Virus record (IMG/VR): IMGVR_UViG_3300045988_103368
Coordinates: 1-30,137 of that record
Source: a virus
DNA: 30,137 bases
Direction: 5' to 3' (one strand)
Shown here: piece by piece, positions 38 to 22,427 of the stretch
Position numbering within the stretch: position 1 is the first letter of the stretch
Layout of the letters: every line of letters starts with the position of its first letter
Notes under the pieces: generated by a model
What the model saw: only the letters and a program-made list of their open reading frames with translations
Databases searched by the model: none
Told to the model about the DNA's origin: nothing
Made by a program: the position numbers and the translations under genes

Positions 38-55
38 CGTAATTGATTGGGATTT
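38..55 (-). repeat. Copy 1 of the 18-nt junction motif (plus-strand text CGTAATTGATTGGGATTT; gene-sense AAATCCCAATCAATTACG).
   Basis: Identical to the copy at 20280-20297. Lies 4 nt after terminator 60-83 and 19 nt before the ATG at 18. Confidence 0.8.
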
Positions 56-59
56 CATT

Positions 60-83
60 AAAAAAACACGCCGTAAGCGTGCT
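60..83 (-). terminator. Intrinsic terminator, leftward orientation.
   Basis: Minus-strand CACGC-TTACG-GCGTG stem-loop followed by T7 (plus-strand A7 at 60-66). Confidence 0.6.
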
Positions 84-133
84 ATGGTGGTATTCGTCTG
101 TACATTTTTGATACTCCTTTCAGATTTTGCCCC

Positions 134-162
134 TTGCAAATTGTTTCCATTTGATATATACT
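134..162 (+). promoter_or_regulatory. SigmaA-type promoter of the rightward moron.
   Basis: TTGCAA (134-139), a 17-nt spacer, then TATACT (157-162). It lies 25 nt upstream of the ATG at 187. Confidence 0.6.
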
Positions 163-186
163 GAAACAAAAAGGAGGCTACAAGCT

Positions 187-729
187 ATGAAAAAATTTAT
201 ATTAGGTTTTATAACAGGCGGTATAATCTGTGCGACCGCGACAGGTTTCGCCGTAGAATATGCCGTAACGGCTAACCCGTTCCCTGTTGCCGTAAACGGT
301 ACAGAAACGGCGATTGAGGGTTACAACATCAACGATAATACATATTTCAAATTACGTGACGTTGCCGACGCTGTAGGCGGTTTCAATGTTGGTTTCAGTG
401 ACAACACTATTACGATTGATACCGATACCACCGCAGAACCAACACCGACACCGACCGTCAAGCCGTACACAACTAACTTGTCACCTTTGCCGGAACTACC
501 TATTGAAAAACGTGACGGTGTACAGTATGTCAGTATGTATGATATTAATGATATGTTAGTAACTATAGGCTTAGGCGATTATGAATTTTTCGGACACGAA
601 CTCTGTAAAAAAGACGATTTATTGAATCCAATATTAACCGATATTCCTCTATACGAAAAAGATATTGAACACATTCCGTATGATTACTATGTTTCTACCA
701 TAATACCAACTATAAACAGCTTACGTTAA
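187..729 (+). CDS. Secreted or membrane-anchored protein with a copper-amine-oxidase-N-terminal-like (stalk) domain and an unknown C-terminal domain. Moron between the tail and the next module.
   Basis: ATG at 187 with AAGGAGG (171-177) 9 nt upstream; the ORF-track start at 127 is a non-ATG extension. N-terminal hydrophobic segment FILGFITGGIICATATGFA. VAVNGTETAIEGYNINDNTYFKLRDVADAVGG...ITI resembles the Cu_amine_oxidN1 repeat of Clostridia/Bacilli surface proteins. PT-rich linker EPTPTPTVKP. Opposite strand to all neighbours, with its own promoter and terminator. Confidence 0.75.
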   Translation: MKKFILGFITGGIICATATGFAVEYAVTANPFPVAVNGTETAIEGYNINDNTYFKLRDVADAVGGFNVGFSDNTITIDTDTTAEPTPTPTVKPYTTNLSPLPELPIEKRDGVQYVSMYDINDMLVTIGLGDYEFFGHELCKKDDLLNPILTDIPLYEKDIEHIPYDYYVSTIIPTINSLR

Positions 730-734
730 TTCAG

Positions 735-763
735 CTACCCTCAAAATGAGGGTAGTATTTTTT
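735..763. terminator. Hairpin terminator between convergent genes, stronger in the plus direction.
   Basis: CTACCCTCA-AAA-TGAGGGTAG (735-755) followed by TATTTTTT. The stop of the minus-strand tail gene (762-764) lies in the T-run. Confidence 0.75.
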
Positions 764-2549
764 ATGACATTGTGTCAATTTGTTTCTTTAGGTTGTTTAC
801 TTTTTCTGTCAGTGCCTCTATTTGTTTTGATAGATTATTTATATCCTTGGTTGTTGCAACAGGACTTTCATCAACGCACAACTCGCCACCCTCAACATTT
901 ATACCCTTGAAGTCCTCATTGTTTGCTACATACGGCACTAAACGGGCATACGGTGTTGAATAATTACCGTCCTTATCCGGTTGGTAACTGTCGCCGTAGA
1001 ATTCAATACCTTTGGTGTTATTACCGGATATTCCGACACGCAACATACCCTGTATCAGACAGTCTTTCATTGTCTGAATACTTCCGGCAATAATAACTTC
1101 TCCGCTTGCGTCCATATATATAGCCGGTTCCTTGTCATTTCCGTATATTGCAAATGCGTATGTATCGCCATAATCACCTAATTTTATTTTTAATTTTTTG
1201 CCATCATCATTGTAGATATTTAGTGTAAACTTACCGCCGACATTTCCTAACTGCAAACGTTTATTACCGTCTTTGTTGTATATCGTCAGCAAATCGCCTA
1301 CAATCTTCAACAACTCGTTGTCGCTCTGCACTTCGTTTCTGTCGGTGTTGACCGTTCCTTGCACCTTGCGAATGTTTACGCTGTTATTCGCCGTCTGCCA
1401 CTTTGCAAATTTCTTTGTTTTCTCTGACGTTTGCCATAGTTCGATAAAAAAATCACGTCTGATATGACCGATTGATATATTGCTCTCTTTCGGCTCCAAC
1501 GGATATGCCTGATACTCAATTACCCTCTGCACATATTCCGTACCGTCTATGTCAAAAACGTGGACCGTGTCGCCTATTTCCAACTTTTCTGCGTCGCCGT
1601 ATTCGGATAACTTCGATAGGTCAATCAGTTTACCGCTGATTGTCAACTGCGGTACGTCAATTCTATCTTCGTTGTCCTCATCAAATTCCCACTTTGCATT
1701 GCGGTACAGTTTGTCCGCTGACGTATAGTCGCTGTAATCTTTGTACCCCTCTTGTACTCCGTATTTTTCAATATTCGGACTGTCGATATATGCCTTGCCG
1801 CCGTTTACACTGCTGACCGTTAAATCATCACTGCCGAACGCCCATAAACGCGTTATCATATCGCTTACGTTGCGTTCTATTGATATGCTTTGCATATTCT
1901 TTTCTAAACGCAGTCTGACGCCGTTATCTGTGCCGATACGTTCAACAATGGCAATGTTACATACAATGTTGTTATTACTGTCAATAGTTGTTTCGTGGAA
2001 TATCTCACCACGTCCCAAATTTTCTATTATCGTTTTTATAACGTCCCACAAATTTGTTTTGTCGGTAGAAAAAAAATCAATCAGCAGTTCATCATCTGCA
2101 ACCCACTTCATTCCCTTTTCGCTTAGCTCCACATTTGTCATAATGTGAAAAATGCAATTCTCACCTACAGACTTTTTGAATTTTGATATAATATCAACCG
2201 CCGCTTGCAATACCACTCTTGAACTTTTTCCGATATGGTCGCCGATTGTCGGTATAAACGCTTTCTGTGCCTCATATACAAAATGCGGTGTACCGTAAAC
2301 GTGCAACACATCTGTACCGCTCATATTTCGTGTTGTTCGGCTGATTTCGTAAATATGGTTATTTACGCTAACCAACATATTTTGACTGATTAGACGCGCC
2401 TTTTCATCATACGGATAATCAAATTCCAAACTACCTGTATCATTTAATATCCTTGTTTCCTTGACGTTATAGGCGTTATTCAGCACCTCGCCCGTTTCAA
2501 AACTGTCTGTATATCTGTCGTGCAATCGCATAAATGTTATCTGTCCCAT
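762..2549 (-). CDS. Tail-associated (Tal-like, prophage-tail N-terminal domain) baseplate or tip protein with a C-terminal coiled coil.
   Basis: Lies immediately downstream of Dit and overlaps it. The start was chosen at the ATG at 2549 (MGQITF...), with GGAGGA 9 nt upstream. The N-terminal region (...SLEFDYPYDEKARLISQNMLVSVNNHIYEI...) is typical of siphovirus Tal/gp37-like proteins. The C-terminal heptads are DINNLSKQIEALTEKVNNLKKQIDT. Confidence 0.8.
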   Translation of the reverse strand: MGQITFMRLHDRYTDSFETGEVLNNAYNVKETRILNDTGSLEFDYPYDEKARLISQNMLVSVNNHIYEISRTTRNMSGTDVLHVYGTPHFVYEAQKAFIPTIGDHIGKSSRVVLQAAVDIISKFKKSVGENCIFHIMTNVELSEKGMKWVADDELLIDFFSTDKTNLWDVIKTIIENLGRGEIFHETTIDSNNNIVCNIAIVERIGTDNGVRLRLEKNMQSISIERNVSDMITRLWAFGSDDLTVSSVNGGKAYIDSPNIEKYGVQEGYKDYSDYTSADKLYRNAKWEFDEDNEDRIDVPQLTISGKLIDLSKLSEYGDAEKLEIGDTVHVFDIDGTEYVQRVIEYQAYPLEPKESNISIGHIRRDFFIELWQTSEKTKKFAKWQTANNSVNIRKVQGTVNTDRNEVQSDNELLKIVGDLLTIYNKDGNKRLQLGNVGGKFTLNIYNDDGKKLKIKLGDYGDTYAFAIYGNDKEPAIYMDASGEVIIAGSIQTMKDCLIQGMLRVGISGNNTKGIEFYGDSYQPDKDGNYSTPYARLVPYVANNEDFKGINVEGGELCVDESPVATTKDINNLSKQIEALTEKVNNLKKQIDTMS

Positions 2550-3367
2550 TTGTATATATCCTCCGTTTCTGTATTCCACACATACTGTGGATAAAATGAA
2601 AATTCGACCGTTGCCGTCGTGGATAAATTTATTGTATTTGCCCCTGTTTCCAGTTCAAAAAAACTACCTTTGATTTTTTTCATAATACTGTTGCCGTTCA
2701 CGTCAGTTACCGACTGTTTGTCGCAGTCAATAACGCAGTTTTCCGACACCGTAATACTGATACCGTTACAGGTTATCGTTGTAGGTTTTGTGACGTTTGT
2801 AACACGCAAAACAGGTTTGACAGGGCGGTCGCCTGTGTTATGTATTGTACTGTCGCCTGCCGTTGTAATCGTGTAATATTCATTCGGTCCGATTGGTATT
2901 TCATCATCTAATTTAATATTTGGGTTATCCAAAATCGGACCGTCAAAAATATCAAATACCAACGCCGCCCACGTCTGCACTTTGAACGACACCGAAATAA
3001 CGGCTTTGTGTCCGTAGTTTTCGGGTTTATAATCTATTGTTTCAATAACCGACGCATTCCATTTGACATTGGGTGTGTCGTCAAATATCAACTCACCGTG
3101 TCCCATTAACCACGTTGTGATTTTTGTGATTTTGCTGTTCAGTTCAGACATATCCGCCGCCGATATTTGCAAATTCATTTTAAATACGCGATTTTTATAA
3201 AATTCACGGTTGTACGCATTTGCCGCCGAAAAATCATATTCACCGTCTATGTACGGACTGTCATACGTCTGTGTTTTCATTTCCGGTTTAATCGGACGTG
3301 ACTGCGTTTGTACAGTCACTCCGAAATCGTTTGAATGTTTGTTTTTAAAATAAAATCCGTTTCGCAT
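2537..3367 (-). CDS. Distal tail protein (Dit, Sipho_tail family).
   Basis: GGAGGT SD before the ATG at 3367. The N-terminus MRNGFYFKNKHSNDFGVTV...RP and the position directly after the tape measure are characteristic. Confidence 0.85.
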   Translation of the reverse strand: MRNGFYFKNKHSNDFGVTVQTQSRPIKPEMKTQTYDSPYIDGEYDFSAANAYNREFYKNRVFKMNLQISAADMSELNSKITKITTWLMGHGELIFDDTPNVKWNASVIETIDYKPENYGHKAVISVSFKVQTWAALVFDIFDGPILDNPNIKLDDEIPIGPNEYYTITTAGDSTIHNTGDRPVKPVLRVTNVTKPTTITCNGISITVSENCVIDCDKQSVTDVNGNSIMKKIKGSFFELETGANTINLSTTATVEFSFYPQYVWNTETEDIYKWDR

Positions 3368-3383
3368 TTTCTACCTCCGCACG

Positions 3384-6300
3384 TTATACATAGCTACCCA
3401 AAACAGCGCTGTCTGTCGTATTGATTGTGATTTTACTGTTGTTGTTATAGTTCTGCTGTTCAATCTTAATGCCCTTAATAGCCTCTATAATCTCACCCAA
3501 AGTCTTGGTTATCTTGTCATTACCGCCGCTGACTTCCTGTGTTATATCCGCCACAATACCCGTCACGTCTATACTGTCAATGTTTGTTGCAATGGACTTG
3601 ATGAAATCAGCCTTGCTGTTTTCCAACGCGTCATACTCCGCCTCCAGTTTTTCAATCGTTGCATTGTTTTTGACTTGCAGTTGATACAGCTCCTCATCAC
3701 GTTGCAGTTGTTTCATCTGCTCTTGCAGTTCTTTGTACTTCTGCTGTCCTCTGTCTGTTACTGCATTTGCGTAAATATCCAACTGCGCCTGTGTTTCGGA
3801 CATGTCAGCCTTGCGGTCCTCTACCGTCCAACTGTCCTGTAGGGCCTGTTCCTGTGCAGAAAATTCATCACGTAATTTGTTGATGTAGTCCTGTTGTTGC
3901 TGTAGCATATCGTCAAACGATTCGCCCGCTTGGTCGAACATATCGTGATTTAGTTCAGTCATATTTTCGTTGTATTCTTTGCGGCTGATTAACCCCAAAT
4001 TATAATATTCCTGTGTATACTGCTGAATACGTTTTAAACCGGCGATATATTCTTCATCAGTCATACCGTAATACTTGCGTTGTTCTTCCAACCAGTTCTT
4101 TGACTGCTCCACACGCTCCGAATACATATCCGAACCTAATTCACTTTGATACTTGTCGAACTCGTCCTGTGTCAACTCGCCGTTCGCCAATTCCTCACGG
4201 TGTCGGTCCATAACACGGTTGTACGCGTCAATCGGACTGTCGCCGTTATCTTGCCAGTCGTTAAAATATGTATGTTCACTGATGTAGTCTTTGGATATGT
4301 CGTACTCTTTTTCAATTTGTTCTTTACGTTTGTCCAAATACTCCTCGTTCAGCTTATTTTTAGCCTCGACGTATTCCTTGTGACTGATTATACCCTGTGC
4401 GTACATTTGTTCGGTGTACGTCTGTATTCTGCCGATACCGGCGATATAATCGGCGGCACTCATACCGTTGTATTTTTCTTGGTGTTCCAACCAATCACGA
4501 CTGTATTCGGTCATATTGTCGTATAACGTTGAACCTATACTTGACATTTCTGTCGTATAGTCCTCCCACGTCATACGTCCTGCCTCGACTTCCGCCATAT
4601 TGCGGTCACGAATACGGGTAAATGCGTCAATAGGATTGTCGCCGTTGTCGTCCCAGTCATTCAGTGCCGCGCGTTCTTCAATGTACGACTTTGACAGGTT
4701 GTTTAACTCTTGCGTGCGTTTCTGTGTCAGACTGAAAATCTGTTCCTCTATGTCGGCAATATCCTTGTCGTTCGACTTGAATTTTTCTTGAAATTCTAAC
4801 CACTTCTCTAATTCTTGTGCGGTCGTTACTGCGTGCGTTTTTGTGTAATGCGTCCAATCGTCCTTGGCTGATGTAAACGCGTCCGAATTGTCTTTTCCTG
4901 TTGCGTAATGCGGTATACCCATACCCGACATTATCGCCTTGGTTTGTGACGCTGTGTACACCTTTGCACCCTTTGACAACGGCAACAACACGTCCTTGCC
5001 CTGAGGTATAAATGCACGTCCTTTGTCAACGATTAATTCTCGCGGGTCAGATATACCCTTTTCATCATTAACCATTGCCAAACCGCCCTCAAAATTTTGT
5101 GTACCTTTTGCGACTTTCTTTTTGACGAACGTTCCCGTACTGCCAAACTTGGCCGCCGGAGCACTTTTATCGCTTAGTCCCTCTATAGACGAACCCTCAA
5201 CAGAAACAGTATAATGGACTGTCGCAAATTTGTCTTCGGGTTGATAGCCGTCAGGTTCTGCACTGTCTTTTGTAAATGTAACATTTCCCTCTTTTGGTGG
5301 TGCTGTATAGTTGTCGGGTTCTGTACTGTCATTAGTCCATATAACTTTACCTGTCGCAGTGATTTCGCCTAATTTATCACCGTTTAGGTCGTTAATATCA
5401 AAACCGCCTGTATCTACGTTGAATTTTATAGTGACTTGGTTGTTGTTGACTAATTCTTGTAGTTCTGAATCAGCCGTATTTAATACAGATATATCCCCCT
5501 CGGCGCTGACTTGTAAATTTACATCACCTACGCCATTTACAACATCAACCGCCCGCTGTACATCTTCAATTATGGATATATCACCGCTTGCGTTAATAGC
5601 AATATTCTTATTTTCGGGAATTAGTCCCATACTGTGTGCCAAATCATTTGCTTGCTTTGTAACTACGTCCAGTGCTCCCGCTTCCGACGCTTCTTGGATT
5701 GACCTAAAACCGTTTTGCAGTAATGCGGCTTTTGTGGCTATCTCATTTGATGACGCACCGAATTTTTGCATATCCGCAGTATAATTTGATATGAAATTAT
5801 TCAGCGTGTCCCCTCCGGCTTGCCATACATCATCAAGACTACTTTGTCCCGTTTGAACGAGAGCCGCCGTTGTCGCCCAATCACTCATTGACAAATCAGC
5901 ATTTTTAACCGCAGTAGTGATATGCTCTAACCCTTGCTCGGTGTCACCAAACTCCATTTCCAACAAACCCGCATTTGCCAACTCACGCATTGTCTTTTCA
6001 TATTCAGCCATAGTAGCTTCATTTTCAGAAATCAACGTGTTGTTGTTTGTTAGATTTTTTTCAAGTTCTTTCGACCAATCCTCTATTGCAGTACTGTTTA
6101 ACAATGCTTCTATCGGAGAATTTTTAAAATTCGGATTGCCTGTTGCTTCGGACAGTTCATTGAATTTGTTATTAAATTCTTCTTGCGAAACACTGCCTTT
6201 GTCATATGCGTCTTTTAGCATTAATAGTTCACTTCTGTAATCCGCTGTTGCTTGTTGCTGTTTTTTTATTCCCTCAACATTTTCATTATACAGTTCTCTG

Positions 6301-8615: not shown

Positions 8616-8630
8616 TAAAACACCTCCTAA

Positions 8631-8822
8631 TTAACCAAAAACAGCCCGCAAATACGGGCTGTCGGCTACTGTTCTGTTATTTTGCGTTGTATTTCCGCCG
8701 CTGTTATTGTTTTCTTCACTCAATGCGTCCAACATTTCAAATAACACTGTCGGATCTTGCCTGCCTACTACGTCGGGCATTAAATGATGTGCTTTAAACA
8801 TAACAGCGTAAATATCTCTTAG
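8631..8822 (-). CDS. T extension of the tail assembly chaperone, reached by a -1 programmed frameshift (GT fusion 9139->8822, then 8822->8631).
   Basis: The -1 frame is open for 63 codons from the last sense codon of the G ORF to a TAA at 8631-8633, just before the TMP SD. The slippery-like heptamer G_AAA_AAC (8822-8828) sits directly on the G stop codon. Confidence 0.6.
   Translation of the reverse strand, partial: LRDIYAVMFKAHHLMPDVVGRQDPTVLFEMLDALSEENNNSGGNTTQNNRTVADSPYLRAVFG
8637..8661 (-). terminator. Terminator-like or attenuator hairpin just upstream of the tape measure start.
   Basis: Minus-strand CAGCCCG-TATTTG-CGGGCTG followed by TTTTT. It lies inside the last codons of the T extension, 21 nt before the TMP ATG. 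Confidence 0.45.
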
Positions 8823-11949: not shown

Positions 11950-12501
11950 TTAGTTGATAAATCCCGCTAAAAACGGGTCATTTCCGCCCTCGTCGCCCGG
12001 CGGGTCTACCTTTGGCGGTTTGCCTTTCATTCGTTCGCTGACTGCCTTTTCTACCGCCGCATTGAAATCCTTTTCAAATGCGTCAATGTTCGCTTTGGTT
12101 TCTTCCGCAGTCTTACCGCACAAACGCTCGGCAAAATTCTTGGACAATCCACGTTCTAACAGTTGATTAGCAGTTTCGGCAACTAACTGCTTTTGTGCAA
12201 ATTCAGATTTTTCCTTTTCAAACTTTTCACGTTCGATACGCATTTCTTCCTTTGCTCTGTCGTCCTTGTTCAGCTTTGCCAGTCTTGCCGCCTCGTCCGC
12301 GTCTTCTTTCCATTTCTTTTGTGCCTCTTCAACAGCTTTCTTTGTGGCCGCGTCAATATCTTCTTGCGAAAATGTCTTTGCAGGCTCCGCAGACGGTTCG
12401 CCTTTAGGCTCGTTCTTTGGTTCACCGTTTGGCTCGCTGTTTGGCTCGCTCTTTGGTTCACCGTTTGGCTCGCTGTTTGGCTCTTTAATTGGTTCTTCCA
12501 T
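11950..12501 (-). CDS. Capsid scaffolding protein (DUF4355-like) with an N-terminal EPNx/EPKx repeat.
   Basis: Charged helical protein (...FSQEDIDAATKKAVEEAQKKWKEDADEAARLAKL...) immediately upstream of the capsid gene. Confidence 0.8.
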   Translation of the reverse strand: MEEPIKEPNSEPNGEPKSEPNSEPNGEPKNEPKGEPSAEPAKTFSQEDIDAATKKAVEEAQKKWKEDADEAARLAKLNKDDRAKEEMRIEREKFEKEKSEFAQKQLVAETANQLLERGLSKNFAERLCGKTAEETKANIDAFEKDFNAAVEKAVSERMKGKPPKVDPPGDEGGNDPFLAGFIN

Positions 12502-12664
12502 TGATTAAATCAATCCTTTCTTTTAAATTTTGGTATAAAAATAGAACCTTTTAATGTCTTGTTCAGGACAATGCTTAACCCTGCACGGGAGATATTCGGA
12601 CCACTACTCCTTTCTGCTATGTGTATGTTGTGCCTATTCTCACACTATCACCACCTTTCAAAAT

Positions 12665-12682
12665 CTCAATTAATTGGGATTT
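12665..12682 (-). repeat. Copy 2 of the 18-nt junction motif (plus-strand text CTCAATTAATTGGGATTT).
   Basis: Lies 6 nt after terminator 12689-12717. It is followed at the canonical 19 nt by an SD-like AAAGGTGG plus GTG, which closes at once (GTG TGA). Confidence 0.75.
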
Positions 12683-12688
12683 TCGCAT

Positions 12689-12717
12689 AAAAAAAGCACG
12701 TCTGCAAACGTGCTTTT
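12689..12717 (-). terminator. Intrinsic terminator after the MuF / small-ORF pair.
   Basis: Minus-strand AGCACG-TTTGCAGA-CGTGCT followed by T7. Confidence 0.8.
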
Positions 12718-13026: not shown

Positions 13027-14712
13027 TCACTCGCTTTCTCCTAAAAGTTTTTCATATATTTTTAACTGCTTTTGTGTTATTTCCGTTTCATTTCGCGGTA
13101 TATTATACTTGTCCACTACACCCAATAACCACTTTTTCGCATCAATTTCATTCAGCAGTTCACGTTTGGGTTTTCCAACGTTTAATTCAATTAAGTTCTG
13201 CTTGAAATGATATGTTTCCTCCAACACTTCACTTACACATACATTATCTCTGAATAAAATAGTATCACCAATTATTGCTGCAGCAGCACCTTGTTTATCT
13301 AAATGTTTATTAACTTCTTCACCACCGCGAATAATAATAGCTCCATTCTTTCGTGCCTCTATTGTAAGTTGATTAAATCGCTCGTCACTAATAAAGTGAA
13401 GTTTTTCTCTTGCTTTTTCTTCTGCTGTTAGTTTCCGAAATTGTTCTTCCTCTACTTTTATTATACCACGTTTTTCACTATTTGCAACAGATATTTTACT
13501 TCTGTACAGGCTTTTTAATTCGTTGTATTTCTCACTGTCATTATACTTCAATTCCTGCCATTTGTCAAAACTTCTCGGTACTTCTTTCGTGCCTAATACT
13601 TTGACATATTTAGTGTGTTGCAATTTGTCTGATGTCTTGTTACTGTCTTTACGTTTTGATAGCTTTAAAGCCGTTTTCTGCTCGTCTGACAGGCTGTTGT
13701 ACCATTCTTGATATGTGACTGAACCGTCTACAATATCATTTTTACCCGTCAGCGGGTCCCTTGCTCGACGATTTTTTAAATCTACCGCAATAGTTGTTGT
13801 ACAACGACATAACGGGTGCAATACAGGATAGTTGTATCCCTCTCTCGCCTCCGACAGCGGCAACACCATATTGTCCCACTGTTGACACCGTTCACACGTT
13901 CTATAGTCCAATGTTGCTAAATATCTGTATTGCTCTGCCCCTATGTCCTCATACGCCTTTAAATCAGACATTGCGTGGATATGTGAACTCTCGGTATGTA
14001 TTAACCTTGTGGCATTGTATTTCTCGACTTGGAACGCCGTAGACAGTTTCTCGGCTGTCTTGCTCCACGCCTCACCCGACATCAGTGACTTGACAACTAA
14101 ATTCTGCGCCGTTGTTGCCAACCTGTCAGTATTATCCCACACACGCTCCGAAAACTGTTTGCCGTGCCATTTTGTACTTACCGCCGCATTTATCGCATTT
14201 TCATTCAATATAGCAAAATTAATACCGACATCAAACTGTTTTGCGCTGTCGTCTATAACTCCGTAATAGCTTTCCTTGTACACCGCTTGCAGCCGCTCTG
14301 ACAGTTTCTCTATTTCCTTTACGGCTACTTTTTTTATTCGGGCATATATAACGGCTTTGACCGCCTCATAACGTTCTTTACGTGCGGCATAGGCTCTGAC
14401 AGATAGTCCGTCACGTCTAATATATGCTAAAATATCTTGTCGCGCCTGTTCGTCGGGTGCGTATTCCAACGATTTTATCAGTGTTTTTAAATTATCTTCC
14501 TGTTGTGCCTGCGTCAAGAAATATTCTGCGGTTTCGTTGTCAATGCCGAAACGCTTTTGAAAATTGATTTTGATTTTCTGTATTTCTGTATCTATATCCG
14601 ACAGTGCCTCGTCGTATAGTTTTAGGATTTCTTCACCTGTGTAGTTCGTTCCTGTCTGTACGGCTATTTCTCTGCGCAGTGCGGCGTCGTTCCAGTATTC
14701 CTCACTTTTCAT
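13027..14712 (-). CDS. Head morphogenesis protein, SPP1 gp7 / Mu F family, with an extra C-terminal module of about 155 aa.
   Basis: Mu F core ...QYRYLATLDYRTCERCQQWDNMVLPLSEAREGYNYPVLHPLCRCTT. Linker SFDKWQELKYNDSEKYNELK. Residues from about 405 to 561 are unassigned. Confidence 0.9.
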   Translation of the reverse strand: MKSEEYWNDAALRREIAVQTGTNYTGEEILKLYDEALSDIDTEIQKIKINFQKRFGIDNETAEYFLTQAQQEDNLKTLIKSLEYAPDEQARQDILAYIRRDGLSVRAYAARKERYEAVKAVIYARIKKVAVKEIEKLSERLQAVYKESYYGVIDDSAKQFDVGINFAILNENAINAAVSTKWHGKQFSERVWDNTDRLATTAQNLVVKSLMSGEAWSKTAEKLSTAFQVEKYNATRLIHTESSHIHAMSDLKAYEDIGAEQYRYLATLDYRTCERCQQWDNMVLPLSEAREGYNYPVLHPLCRCTTTIAVDLKNRRARDPLTGKNDIVDGSVTYQEWYNSLSDEQKTALKLSKRKDSNKTSDKLQHTKYVKVLGTKEVPRSFDKWQELKYNDSEKYNELKSLYRSKISVANSEKRGIIKVEEEQFRKLTAEEKAREKLHFISDERFNQLTIEARKNGAIIIRGGEEVNKHLDKQGAAAAIIGDTILFRDNVCVSEVLEETYHFKQNLIELNVGKPKRELLNEIDAKKWLLGVVDKYNIPRNETEITQKQLKIYEKLLGESE

Positions 14713-14715
14713 ACG

Positions 14716-15051
14716 CTACCCCGCTATTTTTCCTTTGATGATTTCTACAATGTTTTGTTCGTTCGATTTCAGTGCCGGAACTAAATACGGTTGTGCCGCC
14801 ATTTTGTATGTGCCAAATTCAACGTACATAGCGTATTCTTTGTTCGTTCCGACTGTGCCGGTTGTTCCCGACACTTCCGACGTTATGGATTTCTGTAATT
14901 CCCCCGTATCAACAGGACACAAACCTCTTGCGTCTGCCTCAACAACTTTACAACTTTCTGCGATACCCTCTGCCAGTTTTTCGGTTAGATTATTGATTTT
15001 ATCATCAATCATTGCCTGCACATTTTCCAATCCCTCAACGCTAAACTGCAT
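14716..15051 (-). CDS. HK97 gp10-family protein.
   Basis: ...CPVDTGELQKSITSEV...YAMYVEFGT...AQPYLVPAL motif set. The ATG at 15051 overlaps the portal stop (TAATG). Confidence 0.85.
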   Translation of the reverse strand: MQFSVEGLENVQAMIDDKINNLTEKLAEGIAESCKVVEADARGLCPVDTGELQKSITSEVSGTTGTVGTNKEYAMYVEFGTYKMAAQPYLVPALKSNEQNIVEIIKGKIAG

Positions 15052-17659: not shown

Positions 17660-18086
17660 CTTCTTCGCCCCCTATATCATCAATAATAACGACAGGTCCG
17701 TCACTTTCAATCTGTGTCTTGTCGGTAAACAATGCGTAGTATTTACCCAACATTTCCGCCGCACGTAGCCTATCTTTGGCAGGTGGTTTTCCCTCTGTTA
17801 GTTTTTGAAAACCGTCACCGACAAATATCGGGATATTGTCAACGTTTTCGCCACGCAGTACCGCCGTGAGAAATTCTATAACTTCGTTTGCCTGTGCTGT
17901 GTTTTGCTCGTGCAGTTCTTTCAGACGTTCATCAATAGCCTGTTTGATTTCATCTTTTTTCATCAGCCGACTTGCCGCCTGCGGTGCTGTTTTTTCACTG
18001 TAACCTGCCGCAATAGCCGCCGCGGTCTGATTTCTCTTGACGTCATTTACATATGCGTCAACGAACATTTTTTCTTTTTTCGTCAT
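17649..18086 (-). CDS. terS: Terminase small subunit (Terminase_2 / P27-like).
   Basis: MTKKEKMFVDAYVNDVKRNQTAAAIAAGYSEKTAPQAASRLMKKDEIKQAI is the hallmark N-terminal HTH. GAGGTGAG SD. Confidence 0.92.
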   Translation of the reverse strand: MTKKEKMFVDAYVNDVKRNQTAAAIAAGYSEKTAPQAASRLMKKDEIKQAIDERLKELHEQNTAQANEVIEFLTAVLRGENVDNIPIFVGDGFQKLTEGKPPAKDRLRAAEMLGKYYALFTDKTQIESDGPVVIIDDIGGEEDGS

Positions 18087-18191
18087 AGTTTCTCACCTCG
18101 CTTTGTTAATATATTTTCCGCTGTTTTTTAATTCCTACCATTAACGCGCGCGTGTGCGTACGCAAACACCTTAACAAAACTTAACAAAAAA

Positions 18192-18386
18192 TTAAATAAA
18201 TCCGTTTTTTGTCAACGCACGTTCTAACGCTCTGCGCTTGTGCCGGCACTCACACCATTTACGATTATTAAATCGCCATTTGCATATGAATAGCCATTTT
18301 GAAAATTTGTATGTCAATCCGTATTTTTTTGATTGTTTGCGGCTTTTTTTATTTGTTTTCGTATTTTTTTCGTAATATATTTTCAT
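18192..18386 (-). CDS. Small, very basic protein (64 aa) of unknown function.
   Basis: ATG at 18386 (MKIYYEKNTKTNKKSRKQSKK...) with an AAAGGA SD. The ORF-track N-terminal extension runs through terminator 18406-18430. Confidence 0.5.
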   Translation of the reverse strand: MKIYYEKNTKTNKKSRKQSKKYGLTYKFSKWLFICKWRFNNRKWCECRHKRRALERALTKNGFI

Positions 18387-18405
18387 TGTTGGTCCTTTCT
18401 GCACT

Positions 18406-18430
18406 AAAAAAGCGGTGGAACTTTCCGCCG
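18406..18430 (-). terminator. Intrinsic terminator between the early/middle genes and the packaging genes.
   Basis: Minus-strand GCGGCGG-AAAGTT-CCACCGC followed by T6. Only 19 nt separate it from the ATG at 18386. Confidence 0.75.
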
Positions 18431-18439
18431 CTTTGTTTG

Positions 18440-18637
18440 TTACCATTCCCCACGTTGTATAAGACTGTTTATAGTTTTTATCGCATTTAAGTCGGGTGGA
18501 ATATGTTTCTTTATGACCTTGACTTTGCCTGTGTCTTTTTTATTTTTGTCAATGATTATTTCTTTTTCCTCTACTTCATACCCTGTTGCACGTTTCAACA
18601 AGGCATTTTTTATTTGCTCATTTACATCATTATACAC
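18440..18637 (-). CDS. 65-aa ORF resembling only the C-terminal end of HTH-type small-terminase-like phage proteins; possible remnant.
   Basis: GTG at 18637 with an AAGAGGG SD 7 nt upstream. ...LLKRATGYEVEEKEII...KKHIPPDLNAIKTINSLIQRGEW matches, from memory, the GYxxEE...PPD...W tail of such proteins. The N-terminal 55 aa of the track ORF overlap hairpins and the MTase. Confidence 0.5.
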   Translation of the reverse strand: MYNDVNEQIKNALLKRATGYEVEEKEIIIDKNKKDTGKVKVIKKHIPPDLNAIKTINSLIQRGEW

Positions 18638-18666
18638 TTGAAAACCCTCTTTTTTTGTAATATAAT
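18638..18666 (+). promoter_or_regulatory. Near-consensus sigmaA promoter firing rightward, antisense to the phage operon.
   Basis: TTGAAA (18638-18643), a 17-nt spacer, then TATAAT (18661-18666). Confidence 0.6.
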
Positions 18667-18671
18667 AATGC

Positions 18672-18767
18672 AGATAGTTAATGTTCGCGAATATATAAAC
18701 TATCTGCATCAGAGGTATGGCTCTGATGTATGGCGTGAGGTGTTCCCGCACCTCACGTCTTTTTTTA
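18672..18767 (+). ncRNA. Candidate antisense sRNA of about 95 nt (three hairpins, the last a rho-independent terminator).
   Basis: The start is inferred 6-8 nt after the -10. Hairpins are AGATAGTT...AACTATCT (18672-18705), CATCAGAG-GTATGG-CTCTGATG (18707-18728) and CGTGAGGTG-TTCCCG-CACCTCACG (18734-18757) followed by TCTTTTTTT. No SD-preceded ORF. Confidence 0.55.
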
Positions 18768-19781
18768 TTTATTAAACCATTGCAGATGAATTTGTTCTGC
18801 AATTCGTTTCATCATCAACGGTGGAACAGACATTCCGCATACATACTGTACCGACTGTCCCATAAAATTATAATCTTCGGGAAACGTCTGCATATGTATC
18901 ATATCCATATCGGATATATAACACGGTTTTTCATAGTAGACATACGCACCGCCCGACACCAATGTACTTGCCACGCGTTGTGCGTGACATATCTGTGTAC
19001 CGAAATTACTGTCTTTGCCCGTCAGCCGTTCGTTTATGTTTCCGATACTTCGGTCATTCGGTCGTCGGTGTTGCCAACGTTTATACAGTAATGTTGATGT
19101 ATTTATCGGTCTGCCGTTACCGTCACTGATTTCGCCGAACAGTATCGGTTTGTCATTGAAATTCAATGTCAGTTTTCCAAACTGCAAATCTTTCCGCCGT
19201 GATATGAAAAACACACGCTCACGGCGTTGCGGTACTCCCATAAATGCAGCATTTAATAAAAATATCTGCGTATCATAACCGATTGCCGATAATCGTTTTA
19301 TGATTTCGTTTACATATCCCTTCGCATTTCCCTGTACTATTCCTTTGACATTCTCGGCTACAATCACCTTCGGTTTTAGCATTTCGGCCACGTCGATAAA
19401 TTCAAAGAACAGGTCGTCCAATGTTTGTGCCGACTGTCCCTCTCGGAACACTTTTGTTTTGCCCCACGCCTTTTCTCTGTCGCCTGCAATAGAGAATGTA
19501 CTGCAAGGCGGTGAGCCGTCCAATATATCCAACTGATACAGTTCATCAGAAATATTCGCATATTTTTTGAATTGTCGTATATCCATACGATAGTTGTATT
19601 TTGGGTGATGATTTGCAACATACATTTTATTTATTTTTTCGTCAATTTCGCAGTTGCCTAACACCGTATATCCGGCTAATTTATATCCCATTGTTGACCC
19701 ACCGCCGCAGGAAAAACAACTGAACACATTCAATCCATTTTTCTGTACACGGTTTATATCACGTAGTTTCCATTTCCACAT
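18765..19781 (-). CDS. DNA (cytosine-5) methyltransferase.
   Basis: Motifs FSCFSCGGGSTMGY (I), GSPPCSTFS (IV), AENVKG (VI), QRRERVF (VIII) and GMSVPP (X). The start is ambiguous (GTG 19790, ATG 19787, ATG 19781). 19781 has the best spacing to AGGTGA. Confidence 0.92.
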   Translation of the reverse strand: MWKWKLRDINRVQKNGLNVFSCFSCGGGSTMGYKLAGYTVLGNCEIDEKINKMYVANHHPKYNYRMDIRQFKKYANISDELYQLDILDGSPPCSTFSIAGDREKAWGKTKVFREGQSAQTLDDLFFEFIDVAEMLKPKVIVAENVKGIVQGNAKGYVNEIIKRLSAIGYDTQIFLLNAAFMGVPQRRERVFFISRRKDLQFGKLTLNFNDKPILFGEISDGNGRPINTSTLLYKRWQHRRPNDRSIGNINERLTGKDSNFGTQICHAQRVASTLVSGGAYVYYEKPCYISDMDMIHMQTFPEDYNFMGQSVQYVCGMSVPPLMMKRIAEQIHLQWFNK

Positions 19782-19786
19782 ATTCA

Positions 19787-20263
19787 TCACCTGTTAAATT
19801 TAAACCCGCAACGTGGACAGGTGCACTCAAAATTATCGTCGTTATATTCATCTGCCGACAGTTCTTTTGATGTGTTGTCCAATGCCTCTTTAAATTCTTC
19901 ACTTATTTTTTCAAAACCGTATTCCGATAAATCCATATCTAACGCATACAGTTCTTCTTTCAATTTTTCATAGTCCCAGTCTGAAAATTCAGTTGTTTTA
20001 TTATCAACCAAACGGAACGCGTTGATTTGCTGTTCTGTTAAATCGTCTGCGACTATACACGGTATTTCCGTTATACCCAACTTTTCCGCCGCAAGCAAAC
20101 GTGTGTGTCCTGCGACGATTACATTGTTTTTATCTATGATGATTGGCACTCTGTATCCAAATTCTTTGATACTGTTCGCCACTTTATCCACGCTGTCAAC
20201 GTTAATGCGTGGATTGTTTTCATATGGTTTTATATCCGAAATATTTTTATTTACAATTTTCAA
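19787..20263 (-). CDS. ParB N-terminal-domain (ParB-like nuclease) protein with a C-terminal Cys motif.
   Basis: ISDIKPYENNPRIN...VIVAGHTRLLAAEKLG is the ParB/Srx core. Start moved to the TTG at 20263 (SD GAAAGGCGGA 7 nt upstream), because the track N-terminus reads through the motif copy. Confidence 0.85.
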   Translation of the reverse strand: MKIVNKNISDIKPYENNPRINVDSVDKVANSIKEFGYRVPIIIDKNNVIVAGHTRLLAAEKLGITEIPCIVADDLTEQQINAFRLVDNKTTEFSDWDYEKLKEELYALDMDLSEYGFEKISEEFKEALDNTSKELSADEYNDDNFECTCPRCGFKFNR

Positions 20264-20279
20264 TGTTCCGTCCGCCTTT

Positions 20280-20297
20280 CGTAATTGATTGGGATTT
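20280..20297 (-). repeat. Copy 3 of the 18-nt junction motif (CGTAATTGATTGGGATTT).
   Basis: Lies 10 nt after terminator 20308-20337 and 16 nt before the TTG start at 20263. Confidence 0.8.
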
Positions 20298-20307
20298 TCT
20301 CGCAATC

Positions 20308-20337
20308 AAAAACCGCCGTTTACACGCTACGGCGGTT
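20308..20337 (-). terminator. Intrinsic terminator after the sigma-like regulator gene.
   Basis: Minus-strand AACCGCCGT-AGCGTGTAA-ACGGCGGTT followed by TTTTTG. Confidence 0.8.
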
Positions 20338-20418
20338 CCCGATTGATAGAAGAAAAAAAGGAGAAAACCCTATTGTGAATTTTTCACATTACTATAATAA
20401 CACGAAATATACTCCGTT

Positions 20419-20826
20419 TTACTCCGCGTTTTTATTTTTTTGCAAATTTTTTAACGCTGATTTATGAATTTCGTATATTTTAGTTTTTTCAAAGTTCATT
20501 TTTATACAGATTTTATTTTCCTTCAGTCCTAATATGTATTTATATCGCAGTACCGCCTGTTCCTGTGGGTCCGACAGCTCCGCAATCGCAGTTTCGATTG
20601 TTTTCAACTTTTCCGCCGCCGTTGAATATTCTGTTTTATATTGTTCCTGTAAATCAATCAATTTGCAAATCAATTCAGATTTATCGGTTGACTTTCCGCC
20701 GCGTGGCATATCATTGACTATTGCCGTCACTTTATTGATTTGCGACTGCAATTTCTGTATTTGATATTCAATACTCTCTGCATTTCGCATTATTTTTCTG
20801 TATTCCTGTAATTCTTTTTGCGTCAA
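20419..20826 (-). CDS. ArpU/DUF1492-type phage transcriptional regulator (sigma-70 region-4-like HTH).
   Basis: N-terminal coiled coil, DMPRGGKS, and C-terminal ...QEQAVLRYKYILGLKENKICIKMNFEKTKIYEIHKSALKNL, as in late-gene activators of Firmicute phages. TTG start with an AGGGGG SD. Confidence 0.75.
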   Translation of the reverse strand: MTQKELQEYRKIMRNAESIEYQIQKLQSQINKVTAIVNDMPRGGKSTDKSELICKLIDLQEQYKTEYSTAAEKLKTIETAIAELSDPQEQAVLRYKYILGLKENKICIKMNFEKTKIYEIHKSALKNLQKNKNAE

Positions 20827-20843
20827 TGATATGCCCCCTGTTC

Positions 20844-20861
20844 CGTAATCGATTGCGATTT
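20844..20861 (-). repeat. Copy 4 of the 18-nt junction motif (CGTAATCGATTGCGATTT, the most divergent copy).
   Basis: Begins immediately after the stop TAA 20862-20864. Lies 17 nt before the TTG start at 20826. Confidence 0.65.
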
Positions 20862-21014
20862 TTAGTTTTTGTTTAACAGCCTGTGTTGTCCGTTTTTACT
20901 GACTATATACAAATATTCCGGTGTTTCTTTTTCAATTTTCCAATTTTCCGATTTTAAACCGTGTTCGGCAAGAAATAGTTTCTGCCGGCGGTTTGGATTG
21001 ATTAATCTTTTCAT
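20862..21014 (-). CDS. Small 50-aa protein (DUF6906-like by memory; not in the ORF track).
   Basis: ATG at 21014 overlaps the upstream stop (ATGA), with a GGAGGA SD. MKRLINPNRRQKLFLAEHGLKSENWKIEKETPEYLYIVSKNGQHRLLNKN resembles small conserved proteins of Clostridia mobile elements. Confidence 0.6.
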   Translation of the reverse strand: MKRLINPNRRQKLFLAEHGLKSENWKIEKETPEYLYIVSKNGQHRLLNKN

Positions 21015-21343
21015 TGATTTCCTCCGTTTTTTCTTCTGTCATTTTGTTTCATTCTTTGTATTGACCGTTTCCACGAATTCCGTATTATGTTATATTCTCT
21101 GTTTGATGTATCAATCGCAACAATAGAATTTCTTAACTTTGTTTTGTTCATACTGACATCTAAAATATCACGACTTCCGGCAAACGTCAGTACATAAACC
21201 TGTTTTTTGTACCGACGTGCATAATCGATAATACATTCATTGAACAGTGCTTGAAATGTCATTTGTGACGTTATGCGTTTCAAATCACCCGCCTTTAATT
21301 TTCGTATGTATGGTTTCATAAATTTTGATTTATATTTTCTCAT
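21011..21343 (-). CDS. Hypothetical basic protein (110 aa).
   Basis: GAGGGAG SD before the ATG at 21343. No family recognised. Confidence 0.6.
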   Translation of the reverse strand: MRKYKSKFMKPYIRKLKAGDLKRITSQMTFQALFNECIIDYARRYKKQVYVLTFAGSRDILDVSMNKTKLRNSIVAIDTSNREYNIIRNSWKRSIQRMKQNDRRKNGGNQ

Positions 21344-21365
21344 TTGCTTATTTCTCCCTCGTTTT

Positions 21366-21716
21366 TTATATCATTTCATTTCCGTACTGTTTTAGCGAAC
21401 CGTATACCGTTGCTACTGCTATATTTAATTCTTTGCTTATTTCTTTAATCGTGAACCCTTGGTTTTGTAAAAACACAATTCGATTATGGTATATATACCG
21501 TTTATTGTTACTTCGTGACTGTGGTTGCGGTTGTTCACCGTTGCAGATGTACACCCATTCGGGACGTACACCTTTTTTCAGTGCCTCGGTGACATTATGC
21601 CACGCCTCGTTGATACAGGAAACAGAACACATTTGTATTTTAAATGGTTTACCACTGTTTTCGTCGATTTTTTCGTTCATCATTTTTCCACATACTGAAC
21701 AATATGTCTTTCGCAT
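21366..21716 (-). CDS. Zinc-ribbon plus C-terminal HTH DNA-binding protein.
   Basis: CSVCG...CSVSC Cys pairs. The C-terminal IVFLQNQGFTIKEISKELNIAVATVYGSLK resembles resolvase- or sigma-r4-type HTH. GAGGAGG SD. Confidence 0.65.
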   Translation of the reverse strand: MRKTYCSVCGKMMNEKIDENSGKPFKIQMCSVSCINEAWHNVTEALKKGVRPEWVYICNGEQPQPQSRSNNKRYIYHNRIVFLQNQGFTIKEISKELNIAVATVYGSLKQYGNEMI

Positions 21717-21767
21717 TTTTGGGCCTCCTCTTTTATCAATCTTTTTTTATTTCTTTTTTCCTCTCTT

Positions 21768-21938
21768 TCAATATATTGTGATTTCTTTACCGTATATTGT
21801 GATTTCTTTTTCCTTGTCGTCGACTTCTATACTGTCTTTGGTTACATATGAATAACCTTCATCCGCCAACACTGTATAACTGCCCTTGCCAACTTCAATT
21901 AATTCGTTCGCAAATTCTTGTAATTCCTGCACCGTCAT
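21768..21938 (-). CDS. Small 56-aa protein (not in the ORF track).
   Basis: ATG at 21938 overlaps the upstream stop (ATGA). Ends with the duplicated KEITIYGKEITIY, encoded by a 16-bp direct repeat. Confidence 0.5.
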   Translation of the reverse strand: MTVQELQEFANELIEVGKGSYTVLADEGYSYVTKDSIEVDDKEKEITIYGKEITIY

Positions 21939-22390
21939 ATTTCTTCCACCTTTCCTTTTAATGTTTCTTTTACCGCCGCAAACAATTTGTCGTATTTCTC
22001 CGACCCCTCAACCGCCGCAAGTGCGGTTTTAACCGCTATAATACTGTTTTGTGCCTGTTCAAAACACATTTGCAGTTTAACCATTTTTTCATTACTGCCT
22101 AACAGTGATTCTTTCTGCAGTTTTTCAATGGTCTTTTTTAACTCCTCGTTTTCTTTTTCTGCCGCGTCAACCTTTTCCTTTTCGCTCGAAACATCATCTT
22201 GTAGCTTTTTGTACTGTTGTTCCGCATTTTTCGCCTTTTGTTTCGATTTTTTGGCTGCTTGCTCCGCTTTTTCCGCCGCCTGTGGATTGTTTCTGATGAT
22301 GTCTTTCAACTGTTCACCAACATAATACGGTGCAGTATTTTCCTTTCCTGCCTGTTGCCCCTCTATCTGTTTTATGACCGTGTTTATCAT
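21935..22390 (-). CDS. Coiled-coil protein of unknown function (151 aa).
   Basis: ATG at 22390 (MINTVIKQIEG...) with a GAGAGGAAAAACA SD. Lys/Glu-rich heptads. Confidence 0.65.
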   Translation of the reverse strand: MINTVIKQIEGQQAGKENTAPYYVGEQLKDIIRNNPQAAEKAEQAAKKSKQKAKNAEQQYKKLQDDVSSEKEKVDAAEKENEELKKTIEKLQKESLLGSNEKMVKLQMCFEQAQNSIIAVKTALAAVEGSEKYDKLFAAVKETLKGKVEEI

Positions 22391-22409
22391 TGTTTTTCCT
22401 CTCTTTCTT

Positions 22410-22427
22410 CTCAATCGATTGGGATTT
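22410..22427 (-). repeat. Copy 5 of the 18-nt junction motif (CTCAATCGATTGGGATTT).
   Basis: Overlaps the stop TAA 22426-22428 of the upstream gene. Lies 19 nt before the ATG at 22390. Confidence 0.8.

Follow-up and report, generated by a model that had tools for sequence, protein, structure and literature searches.

A dispersed imperfect palindrome at module junctions of a gut prophage as a candidate site for a dimeric DNA-binding protein

Motif copies and their placement in the window

We analyzed an 18-nt motif that recurs in five copies at gene junctions of a 30,137-nt prophage stretch, IMG/VR record IMGVR_UViG_3300045988_103368 (hereafter the window, meaning the whole stretch); sequences of relatives carry labels such as L001 or L115. 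The window is a temperate prophage of the siphovirus type, and its genes run leftward. Its right end holds tRNA-Met, a serine integrase and a cI-like repressor/cro-like switch, followed by small early genes, HUH Rep, RecU, a 185-amino-acid (aa) protein, site 5, a 151-aa gene, a 56-aa gene and a weak motif copy. Further leftward lie a zinc-ribbon/resolvase-type helix-turn-helix (HTH) protein, DUF6906, site 4, DUF1492 with a terminator, and site 3, and then ParB_N, a C5-methylase, TerS, TerL, portal, a MuF protein, a 95-aa gene, a terminator and site 2. The left end comprises scaffold, capsid and tail genes, a plus-strand moron, a terminator, site 1 and a gene cut by the window edge. The copies and the features that adjoin them are as follows, where SD denotes a Shine-Dalgarno sequence and ORF an open reading frame.

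34-55, minus strand: site 1, AAATCCCAATCAATTACGATTA, 22 bp, with halves TCCCAAT and TCGTAAT
65-83, minus strand: intrinsic terminator upstream of site 1, preceded by a mini-ORF, MYRRIPP*
12640-12645, minus strand: start-stop mini-ORF GTG TGA behind the site-2 SD, 19 nt past the motif (TTG TAG instead in L039 and L205)
12661-12682, minus strand: site 2, AAATCCCAATTAATTGAGATTT, palindromic at 21 of 22 positions
12692-12717, minus strand: intrinsic terminator upstream of site 2, closing the MuF-toxin/95-aa cassette
20279-20297, minus strand: site 3, AAATCCCAATCAATTACGA, 5 nt past the ltrB terminator and 16 nt before the TTG of ParB_N (20263-20261)
20303-20345, minus strand: intrinsic terminator after ltrB and upstream of site 3, conserved in L115-L119
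20843-20861, minus strand: site 4, AAATCGCAATCGATTACGG, directly after the TAA of DUF6906 and 17 nt before the TTG (20826-20824) of ltrB (DUF1492)
21766-21784, minus strand: probable sixth, degenerate copy, AAATCACAATATATTGAAA, differing from the 16-bp consensus at one position and centred on AT
21935-22390, minus strand: 151-aa fusion gene after site 5, with 36 N-terminal aa from a 106-aa gene and 115 C-terminal aa from DUF3102
22409-22427, minus strand: site 5, AAATCCCAATCGATTGAGA, overlapping the TAA of the 185-aa gene through the motif's first two A

Inspection of these positions reveals that all five copies lie on the minus strand in gene sense, within intergenic gaps of 35-230 nt and in one orientation relative to transcription. 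A search of the window with the 18-mer, allowing up to two mismatches, gave six matches against 0.08 expected, and 0 of 100 shuffles reached six; the sixth match is the echo of site 2 on the reverse strand. With a position weight matrix derived from the five copies, the copies themselves score 25.3-28.7 bits, the reverse echoes of sites 2 and 1 score 17.9 and 11.7, and background stays at or below 11.6. The copies had been picked out, with exact coordinates and letters, by an earlier sequence-only reading of the window, which also gave the start-codon spacings correctly, including the GTG TGA and leader at site 2. The three intrinsic terminators it had described are real, with hairpins of -9.4, -13.0 and -24.8 kcal/mol that each precede a U-run, and the two stop codons it had seen abutting the motif are the TAA at 20862-20864 (site 4) and the TAA at 22426-22428 (site 5). 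Searching the rest of the prophage, as it had proposed, added the one degenerate copy at 21766-21784, which overlaps the 56-aa gene's stop codon and has the zinc-ribbon/HTH gene 50 nt downstream; AGAGAGGAAAAAA follows this copy, as it likewise follows site 5.

The motif ends 19 nt before the next start codon at site 1, 16 nt at site 3, 17 nt at site 4 and 19 nt at site 5, where the start is the ATG (22390-22388) of the fusion gene, and it is separated by 0-8 nt from SD sequences that are extended. In the 35-nt gaps of sites 4 and 5 there is room only for a stop codon, the motif, an SD and a start codon. The 16-19 nt distance therefore amounts to an SD, its spacing and a linker of 0-6 nt, because the only non-coding slot of a packed phage genome runs from the gene end to the SD. 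Among relatives, the linker between terminator and motif varies (aatg, aatacca or aatgaa), that between motif and SD reads att(t)agaaagg, and small indels occur on either side of the motif. Such tolerance on both flanks fits an autonomous site, for which, as far as these comparisons tell, an exact register would be unnecessary.

Each copy precedes a different set of genes. Site 1, with the terminator at 65-83 upstream of it, is followed by the SD GAAAGGA and the ATG (18-16) of the gene that runs off the window; in relatives (L001) this gene encodes a 382-aa fibre-like protein and is followed by holin and endolysin genes. The site-1 block is kept in 32 of 33 fibre-anchored relatives. The MYRRIPP* mini-ORF with its own SD (84-107) and the terminator are conserved as a block with site 1 in the same 32 of 33, and the genes upstream of this block differ among relatives, being either lipoprotein morons or a plus-strand gene. 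Site 2, downstream of the terminator at 12692-12717, is followed by a very strong SD (GAAAGGTGGTGA) and the start-stop GTG-TGA, after which a leader of ~138-140 nt extends to the scaffold ATG at 12501. The scaffold leader (12502-12660) is kept in relatives and contains, besides the start-stop, a second SD with a 9-codon ORF; a hairpin within it shows changes that look compensatory (cccgtgcaggg versus cccgacacgggg). A permissive Rfam scan of the site-2 leader gave only sub-threshold matches to enterobacterial small RNAs, and no family fits. Site 3 is the first element of a ParB-Dcm cassette. The orthologue of site 4 is degenerate in the L115-L119 clade (AAATCACAAATCAGTTACG), which also lacks the cassette that bears site 3. 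Orthologues of site 5 lie at L120:4103 and L125:4127, and the site is present in 14 of 14 DUF3102-anchored relatives.

Symmetry and variation of the motif

The sequence-only reading had noted palindromic cores within the motif. That symmetry is real and extends beyond the 18-mer, which constitutes the left 18 nt of an imperfect 19-22-bp palindrome, AAWTCNCAAT-YR-ATTRNGA(TTT). Two TCNYAAT half-sites flank a 2-nt centre (7-2-7), and all five window copies read TCNYAAT-YR-ATTRNGA, site 4 with one departure. When the window was searched with the 16-bp form TCNYAAT-NN-ATTRNGA at up to one mismatch, the five sites and the weak copy at 21766-21784 were the only matches, with 0.46 expected.

More distant relatives carry the palindrome in fuller form. 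L120, L121 and L125, which were retrieved via LtrB homologues of 41-47% identity, contain AAATCCCAAT-NN-ATTGGGATTT, in which 10-bp arms that are perfect or near-perfect flank a 2-bp centre. Palindromes occupy orthologous junctions at L120:1974 and 4103, at L125:2061 and 4127, and at the place of site 2 in L123 and L144. Copies of the L120/L125 type stand before a small zinc-ribbon gene that precedes Rep, after RecU (the site 5 orthologue) and inside the DUF3102 gene. In L123, L144, L145 and L152 the site-2 orthologue is a perfect 22-bp palindrome.

Comparison of orthologues and paralogues reveals which positions are held. The mirror positions T4, C5, A8, A9 and T10 on the left and A13, T14, T15, G18 and A19 on the right are kept, whereas positions 3, 6, 16 and 17 and the centre (CA, TA, CG or TG) vary among sites and orthologues. 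Pairs 6/17 and 7/16 are mostly mismatched in the window copies and change without compensation. At the place of site 2, prophages that are otherwise 99% identical show three variants, with the informative positions intact in all of them. Such symmetric conservation around a free centre most likely marks a site that a DNA-binding protein occupies as a dimer.

Searches outside these relatives were of limited yield. A literal search for the motif in published papers returned primers only, 12 kb of the window had no megablast match among GenBank phages, and an Rfam scan at the gathering threshold reported tRNA only. A metagenome scan with the full palindrome returned mostly generic AT-rich A-run/hairpin/T-run terminators from unrelated environments, and no host regulon emerged from it.

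Mosaic joints and candidate binding proteins

Comparison of the window with its relatives places mosaic joints at the edge or in the core of the motif for three of the five sites (2, 3 and 5). At site 3, homology with L115-L117 stops at 20294, the 5' edge of the motif, and homology with L119 stops at 20302; the ParB-Dcm cassette of the window (18438-20293) is an insertion relative to L115-L117. At site 2, a polymorphic MuF-toxin/immunity cassette ends at 12675, in the motif core, relative to L116, L117 and L119, and at 12660/12661, 4-5 nt beyond the 18-mer, relative to L115 and L246. At site 5, homology with L117 stops at 22426 (the 5' edge) and homology with L119 at 22393, which is the end of the SD and the last base before the start region. 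The unit of motif and SD heads different genes in L119 and L002 than in the window.

Whole cassettes are also bounded by the motif. L115 holds a two-gene cassette flanked by direct repeats of ~40 nt that begin with a weak copy (7545 and 8327), L144 holds a promoter-bearing two-gene cassette between one degenerate and one perfect copy, and cassettes flanked by full or partial copies occur in L116 and L193-L204 as well. Most relatives have a 113-116-aa gene between the toxin cassette and scaffold, with a motif variant at its 5' side and the remnant ATAATTAATTCATTGAAAGG at its 3' side, and left-arm and right-arm variants are mixed at the place of site 2. Judged from these comparisons, mobile units begin at their 5' end with the motif, which is also a preferred joint. 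That the joints fall at varying positions of the motif and that the duplicated segments measure 40-75 nt points to homologous rather than site-specific exchange. The proposal of the sequence-only reading that the motif is a linker that promotes module exchange is thus borne out by the joints at sites 2, 3 and 5 and by the flanked cassettes; such exchange is probably a by-product and not the selected function.

The toxin cassette at site 2 has features of its own. A perfect sigma-A promoter, TTGACA-17-TATAAT, lies within the 3' part of the MuF gene at 13540-13568 (minus strand), upstream of the 95-aa ORF, and a second good sigma-A promoter is found in the same part of the gene at 13460-13487 (minus strand). 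The MuF C-terminus and the small genes that follow are replaced among relatives (Ntox50 in L246), and the MuF/95-aa unit looks like a polymorphic toxin/immunity moron. Near site 1, the plus-strand gene at 127-729 encodes a 200-aa protein with an N-terminal membrane/signal segment; it is oriented opposite to the late genes, has a promoter-like site at 134-162 and a terminator at 734-756, and is a moron.

We next consider which protein might bind the motif. The window has the following proteins in common with the L120/L125 clade: Rep, a 67-aa Cys-rich protein, RecU, a 46-aa membrane protein, the 185-aa protein (AlphaFold predicted local distance difference test score, pLDDT, of 50.5), DUF6906 and LtrB, together with the C-terminal part of DUF3102. 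In the relatives, DUF3102 is the best candidate binder, and its operon is headed by site 5. Intact DUF3102 proteins of relatives share an invariant HTH-like stretch, and an AlphaFold model (pLDDT 75.7) gave weak Foldseek matches to the DNA-binding domains of Noc/ParB, with E values of 0.2-2 and a probability of at most 0.96. Within the DUF3102 gene itself lies a near-perfect palindrome (L120:6414, L125:6828 and L126:294) that is in frame and codes for KSQSIGN; codon choice reproduces the motif in the L120/L125 clade, and in the window-like clade the copy drifts by both synonymous and non-synonymous changes. The value of this in-gene copy as evidence is uncertain.

In the window, DUF3102 is incomplete. 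The gene after site 5, described in the sequence-only reading as a coiled-coil gene, is indeed present there, and its identity is that of a deletion fusion with the C-terminus of DUF3102. The fusion joint lies at 22270-22282, and the deletion took PcfJ together with the N-terminal domain of DUF3102, the candidate DNA-binding part. For the exact 151-aa fusion protein, 2237 index blocks of public assemblies are listed, with contigs of up to 416 kb; the deletion lineage is very widespread. With its N-terminal domain deleted, DUF3102 is rejected as the binder for the window, and L119, which has site 5 in the absence of DUF3102, also counts against it there; it remains a candidate in the relatives.

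Other proteins were evaluated in turn. The ParB_N protein of the window was discarded as a binder, given that no ParB_N gene is listed in the motif-bearing L120/L125 loci; the protein has no recognizable HTH. The 116-aa protein encoded at 21366-21716 combines an N-terminal zinc ribbon with a C-terminal HTH that weakly matches the resolvase/invertase HTH_7 (Tn552 Bin3, gamma-delta resolvase). On this weak match it may be a stand-alone resolvase-type DNA binder; it is a candidate in the window lineage and is absent from L120/L125. PDB sequence searches with DUF3102 and the zinc-ribbon/HTH protein gave nothing decisive beyond the weak resolvase-HTH match of the latter. A host factor may also be the binder. 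The Zur half-site, which we take to be 7-1-7 TCGTAAT-N-ATTACGA, equals the right arms (ATTACGA) of sites 1, 3 and 4, with a 2-bp spacer here, and the AAATC/GATTT flanks equal the same presumed half-site, the comparison being with an assumed consensus. The NrdR box, which we assume to be 16 bp with an AT centre and arranged in tandem pairs, is fitted by the 7-2-7 CAAT..ATTG arrangement; here the centre is YR and the copies are single.

The sigma-like regulator of the window is a DUF1492/LtrB-family late activator, and it is an unlikely binder of the motif: clades whose LtrB is 41-66% identical have no copy around ltrB. A search of genome contigs for LtrB returned one distant Ruminococcus metagenome-assembled genome at 29% identity. 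Directly after the ltrB stop, a different block is found that contains the following element:

20374-20388, minus strand: separate element TGTGAAAAATTCACA, outside the motif family

This block (window 20371-20400), TAT(T/A)AT-GTA-GTGAAAAATTCACA, forms a Crp/Fnr-like palindrome with a 5-nt spacer and is kept in every LtrB clade from 41 to 100% identity. It is likely the LtrB-responsive element or late-promoter region, at the place where Ltr sites are known, directly distal to ltr genes (PMC3753634). The string AAATCCGAATTGATT inside ltrB, which codes for KSELI, was set aside as motif-like by coding coincidence.

A role as CI operator was also rejected: the cI/cro operators have an unrelated sequence, TCTACAAAAAGTAGA, and the cI/cro region contains no motif copy. 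Between the cI-like and cro-like genes (27790-27920) stand three to four copies of a TCTAC(A/T)TTTTGTAGA palindrome that overlap divergent promoters matching the consensus at 12/12 and 11/12 positions, and this intergenic region is the genetic switch. Two further features lie in the right part of the window. Strong inverted repeats at 24620-24727, upstream of HUH Rep and including a perfect 14-nt pair with a 17-nt spacer, are a possible replication origin, and the 3' end of the serine integrase gene (28482-29957) overlaps the tRNA-Met gene (29936-30011) by ~22 nt, which suggests integration into that tRNA gene.

Operator, RNA-level and recombination readings of the motif

Of the explanations considered, we tentatively favor, at a probability of about 0.42, that the copies are dispersed sites for a dimeric DNA-binding protein and may act as module-boundary operators or roadblocks that incidentally serve as recombination joints. 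The copies would then mark the starts of modules, namely the accessory PcfJ/DUF3102 cassette, the late activator, the ParB-Dcm/packaging genes, the head genes and the fibre-lysis genes. A protein bound there would constitute a roadblock or insulator in series with the terminators and would limit how often RNA polymerase that has transcribed one module, or a moron active in the lysogen, reads on into the following module, late and lysis genes included. Upstream of sites 1 and 2 stand moron-like units that bring promoters of their own (the plus-strand gene at 127-729 and the 12/12 promoter at 13568-13540), and this context would make insulation useful. Roadblocks by HTH repressors are established in Firmicutes; protein binding and a roadblock effect at the motif are suggested by its sequence and setting. 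The imperfect inner pairs of the window copies may retain the DNA contacts and at the same time avoid an RNA hairpin beside the SD. The 20-40 bp of motif plus SD additionally work as a homology patch, because the same stretch recurs at many junctions, and it is here that cassettes come, go and are exchanged.

Several observations weigh against this reading. Pfam and PHROG scans of small early proteins yielded no binder, and the fold match of DUF3102 is weak. The deletion lineage of 2237 index blocks keeps all sites without the DUF3102 domain, and in L242, which has DUF3102, the 6 kb to each side contain no intergenic copy. Relative to transcription, it is always the upstream arm that is better conserved, and the motif always adjoins a strong SD; a purely symmetric DNA site needs neither feature, and both suit a role at the RNA level too. 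The relatives are mostly close, and much of the invariance thus reflects common ancestry; the motif itself served to ascertain the first viral scan, a bias that the protein-anchored sets of relatives were used to lessen. A roadblock at sites 1 and 2 would, moreover, hinder late transcription unless relieved.

An RNA-level element of the 5' untranslated region is unlikely, though several observations speak for it. It would bind a host or phage factor, or act as an unstructured standby or stabilizer, and tune the translation or mRNA stability of the first gene of a module; at site 2, the motif, SD and start-stop would resemble a STAB-SD-type 5' stabilizer of the head-gene mRNA. Every copy is in sense orientation close to an extended SD, motif and SD move as a unit before different genes, and the upstream arm is always better conserved. 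The window copies are unstructured and G-poor, the start-stop behind the near-perfect SD of site 2 recurs as TTG TAG in L039 and L205, and the nearest analogue, SAS/ESAS, has likewise been discussed as translational (PMC3203893). Mirror-symmetric conservation with a free centre is, however, unexpected for recognition of single-stranded RNA. Folded with their leaders, the window copies have minimum free energies of -1 to -3.2 kcal/mol with z >= 0, no better than shuffles, and the hairpin is not conserved, its inner pairs being uncompensated; the RNA-level proposal of the sequence-only reading accordingly finds no backing in folding or in the variation at 6/17 and 7/16. The perfect palindromes of relatives would set a hairpin of -7 to -12 kcal/mol beside the SD, and the fibre gene of L164 stands at a plain junction that lacks the motif.

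That the motif is a recombination linker and nothing more, with no regulatory role, appears rather improbable. It would serve as a homology patch, or as the site of a dedicated recombinase, for cassette exchange among co-infecting relatives. The joints at 20294, 12675, 12660/61, 22426 and 22393 speak for it, as do the cassettes of L115, L116/L193-L204 and L144 with full or partial copies at their flanks, the mixing of arm variants at the place of site 2 and the resolvase-type HTH protein encoded at 21366-21716. The 10-2-10 geometry with a central dinucleotide also recalls the crossover sites of serine recombinases. Against this reading, the flanking duplications of ~40-75 nt reach beyond a 2-bp crossover, the joints lie at differing positions of the motif as homologous exchange predicts, and the differing centres would block serine-recombinase exchange between most pairs of sites. 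Selection on evolvability is, in addition, weak for holding ten mirror positions.

Two further readings carry little credence. The first is a compact promoter at which host RNA polymerase and a phage factor (LtrB or another sigma-like protein) would restart transcription after terminators with a leader of ~15 nt. Three copies do follow terminators, the essential head and lysis genes downstream need transcription, the motif stands first in cassettes, where morons usually have a promoter, and the phage has a sigma-region-4-like activator. A promoter scan and direct reading, however, revealed no consistent sigma-A -35/-10 elements in or beside the five copies, and with a palindromic activator site whose centre lies 24-27 nt ahead of the start codon, transcription would begin within the gene. 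In L120/L125, early replication genes as well as late genes follow the motif, LtrB clades of 41-66% identity lack it by ltrB and keep the other block after ltrB, and known Ltr sites are 7-nt direct repeats (PMC3753634). The sequence-only reading had offered the sigma-like regulator or another DNA binder, re-initiating transcription after terminators; the DNA binder survives, on the 7-2-7 symmetry with its free YR centre, while the regulator is an unlikely occupant in view of the different block after ltrB and the clades without the motif nearby, and re-initiation is at odds with the lack of consistent -35/-10 elements and with the early replication-module genes that the motif heads along with late ones.

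The second, which we hold to be equally improbable, is a dedicated cassette system with 10-2-10 sites at the 5' end of every mobile unit of motif, SD and genes. It would draw on the adjoining resolvase-type HTH protein, on the ParB/Noc-like protein and on a central dinucleotide as in serine-recombinase sites.

Least credible of all is that the copies are decayed small intrinsic terminators, the palindromes of relatives being weak terminators and the window copies remnants left after stronger upstream terminators arose: the full palindromes do fold at -6.8 to -12.3 kcal/mol with TTTTG following, and the same palindrome occurs as a generic A-run/hairpin/T-run terminator in unrelated metagenomes, but decay would not spare the left arm, the AAT/ATT core and G18A19 at all five sites and in many orthologues while losing the inner pairs alone, and sites 4 and 5 lie within operons directly between stop codon and SD. 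As present-day intrinsic terminators the window copies were rejected for want of a stable hairpin (-1 to -3.2 kcal/mol, z >= 0).

Returning to the favored reading of dispersed protein-binding sites, the motif resembles known repeated junction elements and belongs to no defined family, the nearest being the ESAS. The SAS and ESAS of Cluster K mycobacteriophages (Pope et al. 2011, PMC3203893), the function of which was still open in 2025 (PMC12699233), are likewise short one-orientation repeats directly before the translation starts of a subset of genes from varied families. ESAS form imperfect inverted repeats that immediately precede the ribosome-binding site (RBS), with a left repeat nearer the consensus and no compensatory changes, all of which holds for the window motif. 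In contrast, the 13-bp SAS is asymmetric, includes the SD core and is found 3-7 bp ahead of the start codon, whereas the motif excludes the SD and stops 16-19 nt short of the start. In ESAS, 17-bp arms flank a spacer of 4-13 bp, and the motif has arms of 7-10 bp about a fixed 2-bp centre. The mycobacteriophage elements number 11-19 copies in the non-structural half only, in contrast to the 5-6 motif copies that stand before head and lysis modules as well, and they are unrelated in sequence, host phylum and phage lineage.

The stoperators of Cluster A mycobacteriophages, bound by L5 gp71, are similarly short dispersed sites in short intergenic gaps with an orientation tied to transcription, and they have been proposed to stop elongating RNA polymerase at gene junctions (PMC9283540). 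They differ in being asymmetric 13-mers, monomer-bound and present in >20 copies, as opposed to a 7-2-7 palindrome in 5-6 copies in 30 kb, and in sharing the immunity operator sequence at the early promoter, where the cI/cro operators of the window differ from the motif. PeSLs of T4-type phages (Arbiol et al. 2010, PMC2839356) are small conserved non-coding junction cassettes with a stem-loop terminator beside a conserved element, and recombination between their copies drives insertion, deletion and replacement of accessory genes, just as joints fall at the motif. PeSLs nevertheless contain a strong sigma-70 early promoter, and none that is consensus-like is found at the motif copies; the adjacent terminator is present at sites 1, 2 and 3 and absent at sites 4 and 5, and the motif is palindromic. 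The Ltr (RinA/ArpU/LtrB/LtrC) sites upstream of terS comprise 2-4 direct 7-nt repeats directly distal to the ltr gene (Quiles-Puchalt et al. 2013, PMC3753634). The window shares with these systems an LtrB-family activator on the same phage and one motif copy between the ltrB terminator and the next gene; the motif differs as a dispersed palindrome that is absent beside ltrB in several LtrB clades.

The motif also shares with ParB-family sites its palindromic form and its several dispersed copies, one of them inside the DUF3102 gene in relatives. Sites of that family (KorB-OB on IncP plasmids, Noc-NBS and Spo0J-parS) are dispersed 13-16-bp palindromes to which an HTH protein binds as a dimer; the spo0J gene itself contains one parS, and KorB sites at operon starts silence transcription. 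The difference is that the motif has no proven partner among HTH proteins of the ParB family, the fold match of DUF3102 being weak and DUF3102 lacking the CTPase domain.

The prophage is extremely common in human-gut metagenomes, and its motif has a small, clean consensus of ten informative mirror positions. Stoperators, SAS/ESAS and PeSLs are already known, and only some of them are understood, the role of inverted repeats of the ESAS kind beside the RBS being among those still open. Should the improbable cassette system be real, accessory genes of this widespread gut prophage family would be captured, expressed and exchanged somewhat like integron cassettes, and the same protein-bound sites would insulate modules. 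Natural variants with and without the candidate binders, and with perfect or imperfect palindromes, make this a tractable system in which to address whether such elements act as DNA or as RNA, whether roadblocks insulate modules in temperate phages of Firmicutes, and how short regulatory sequences channel mosaic recombination.

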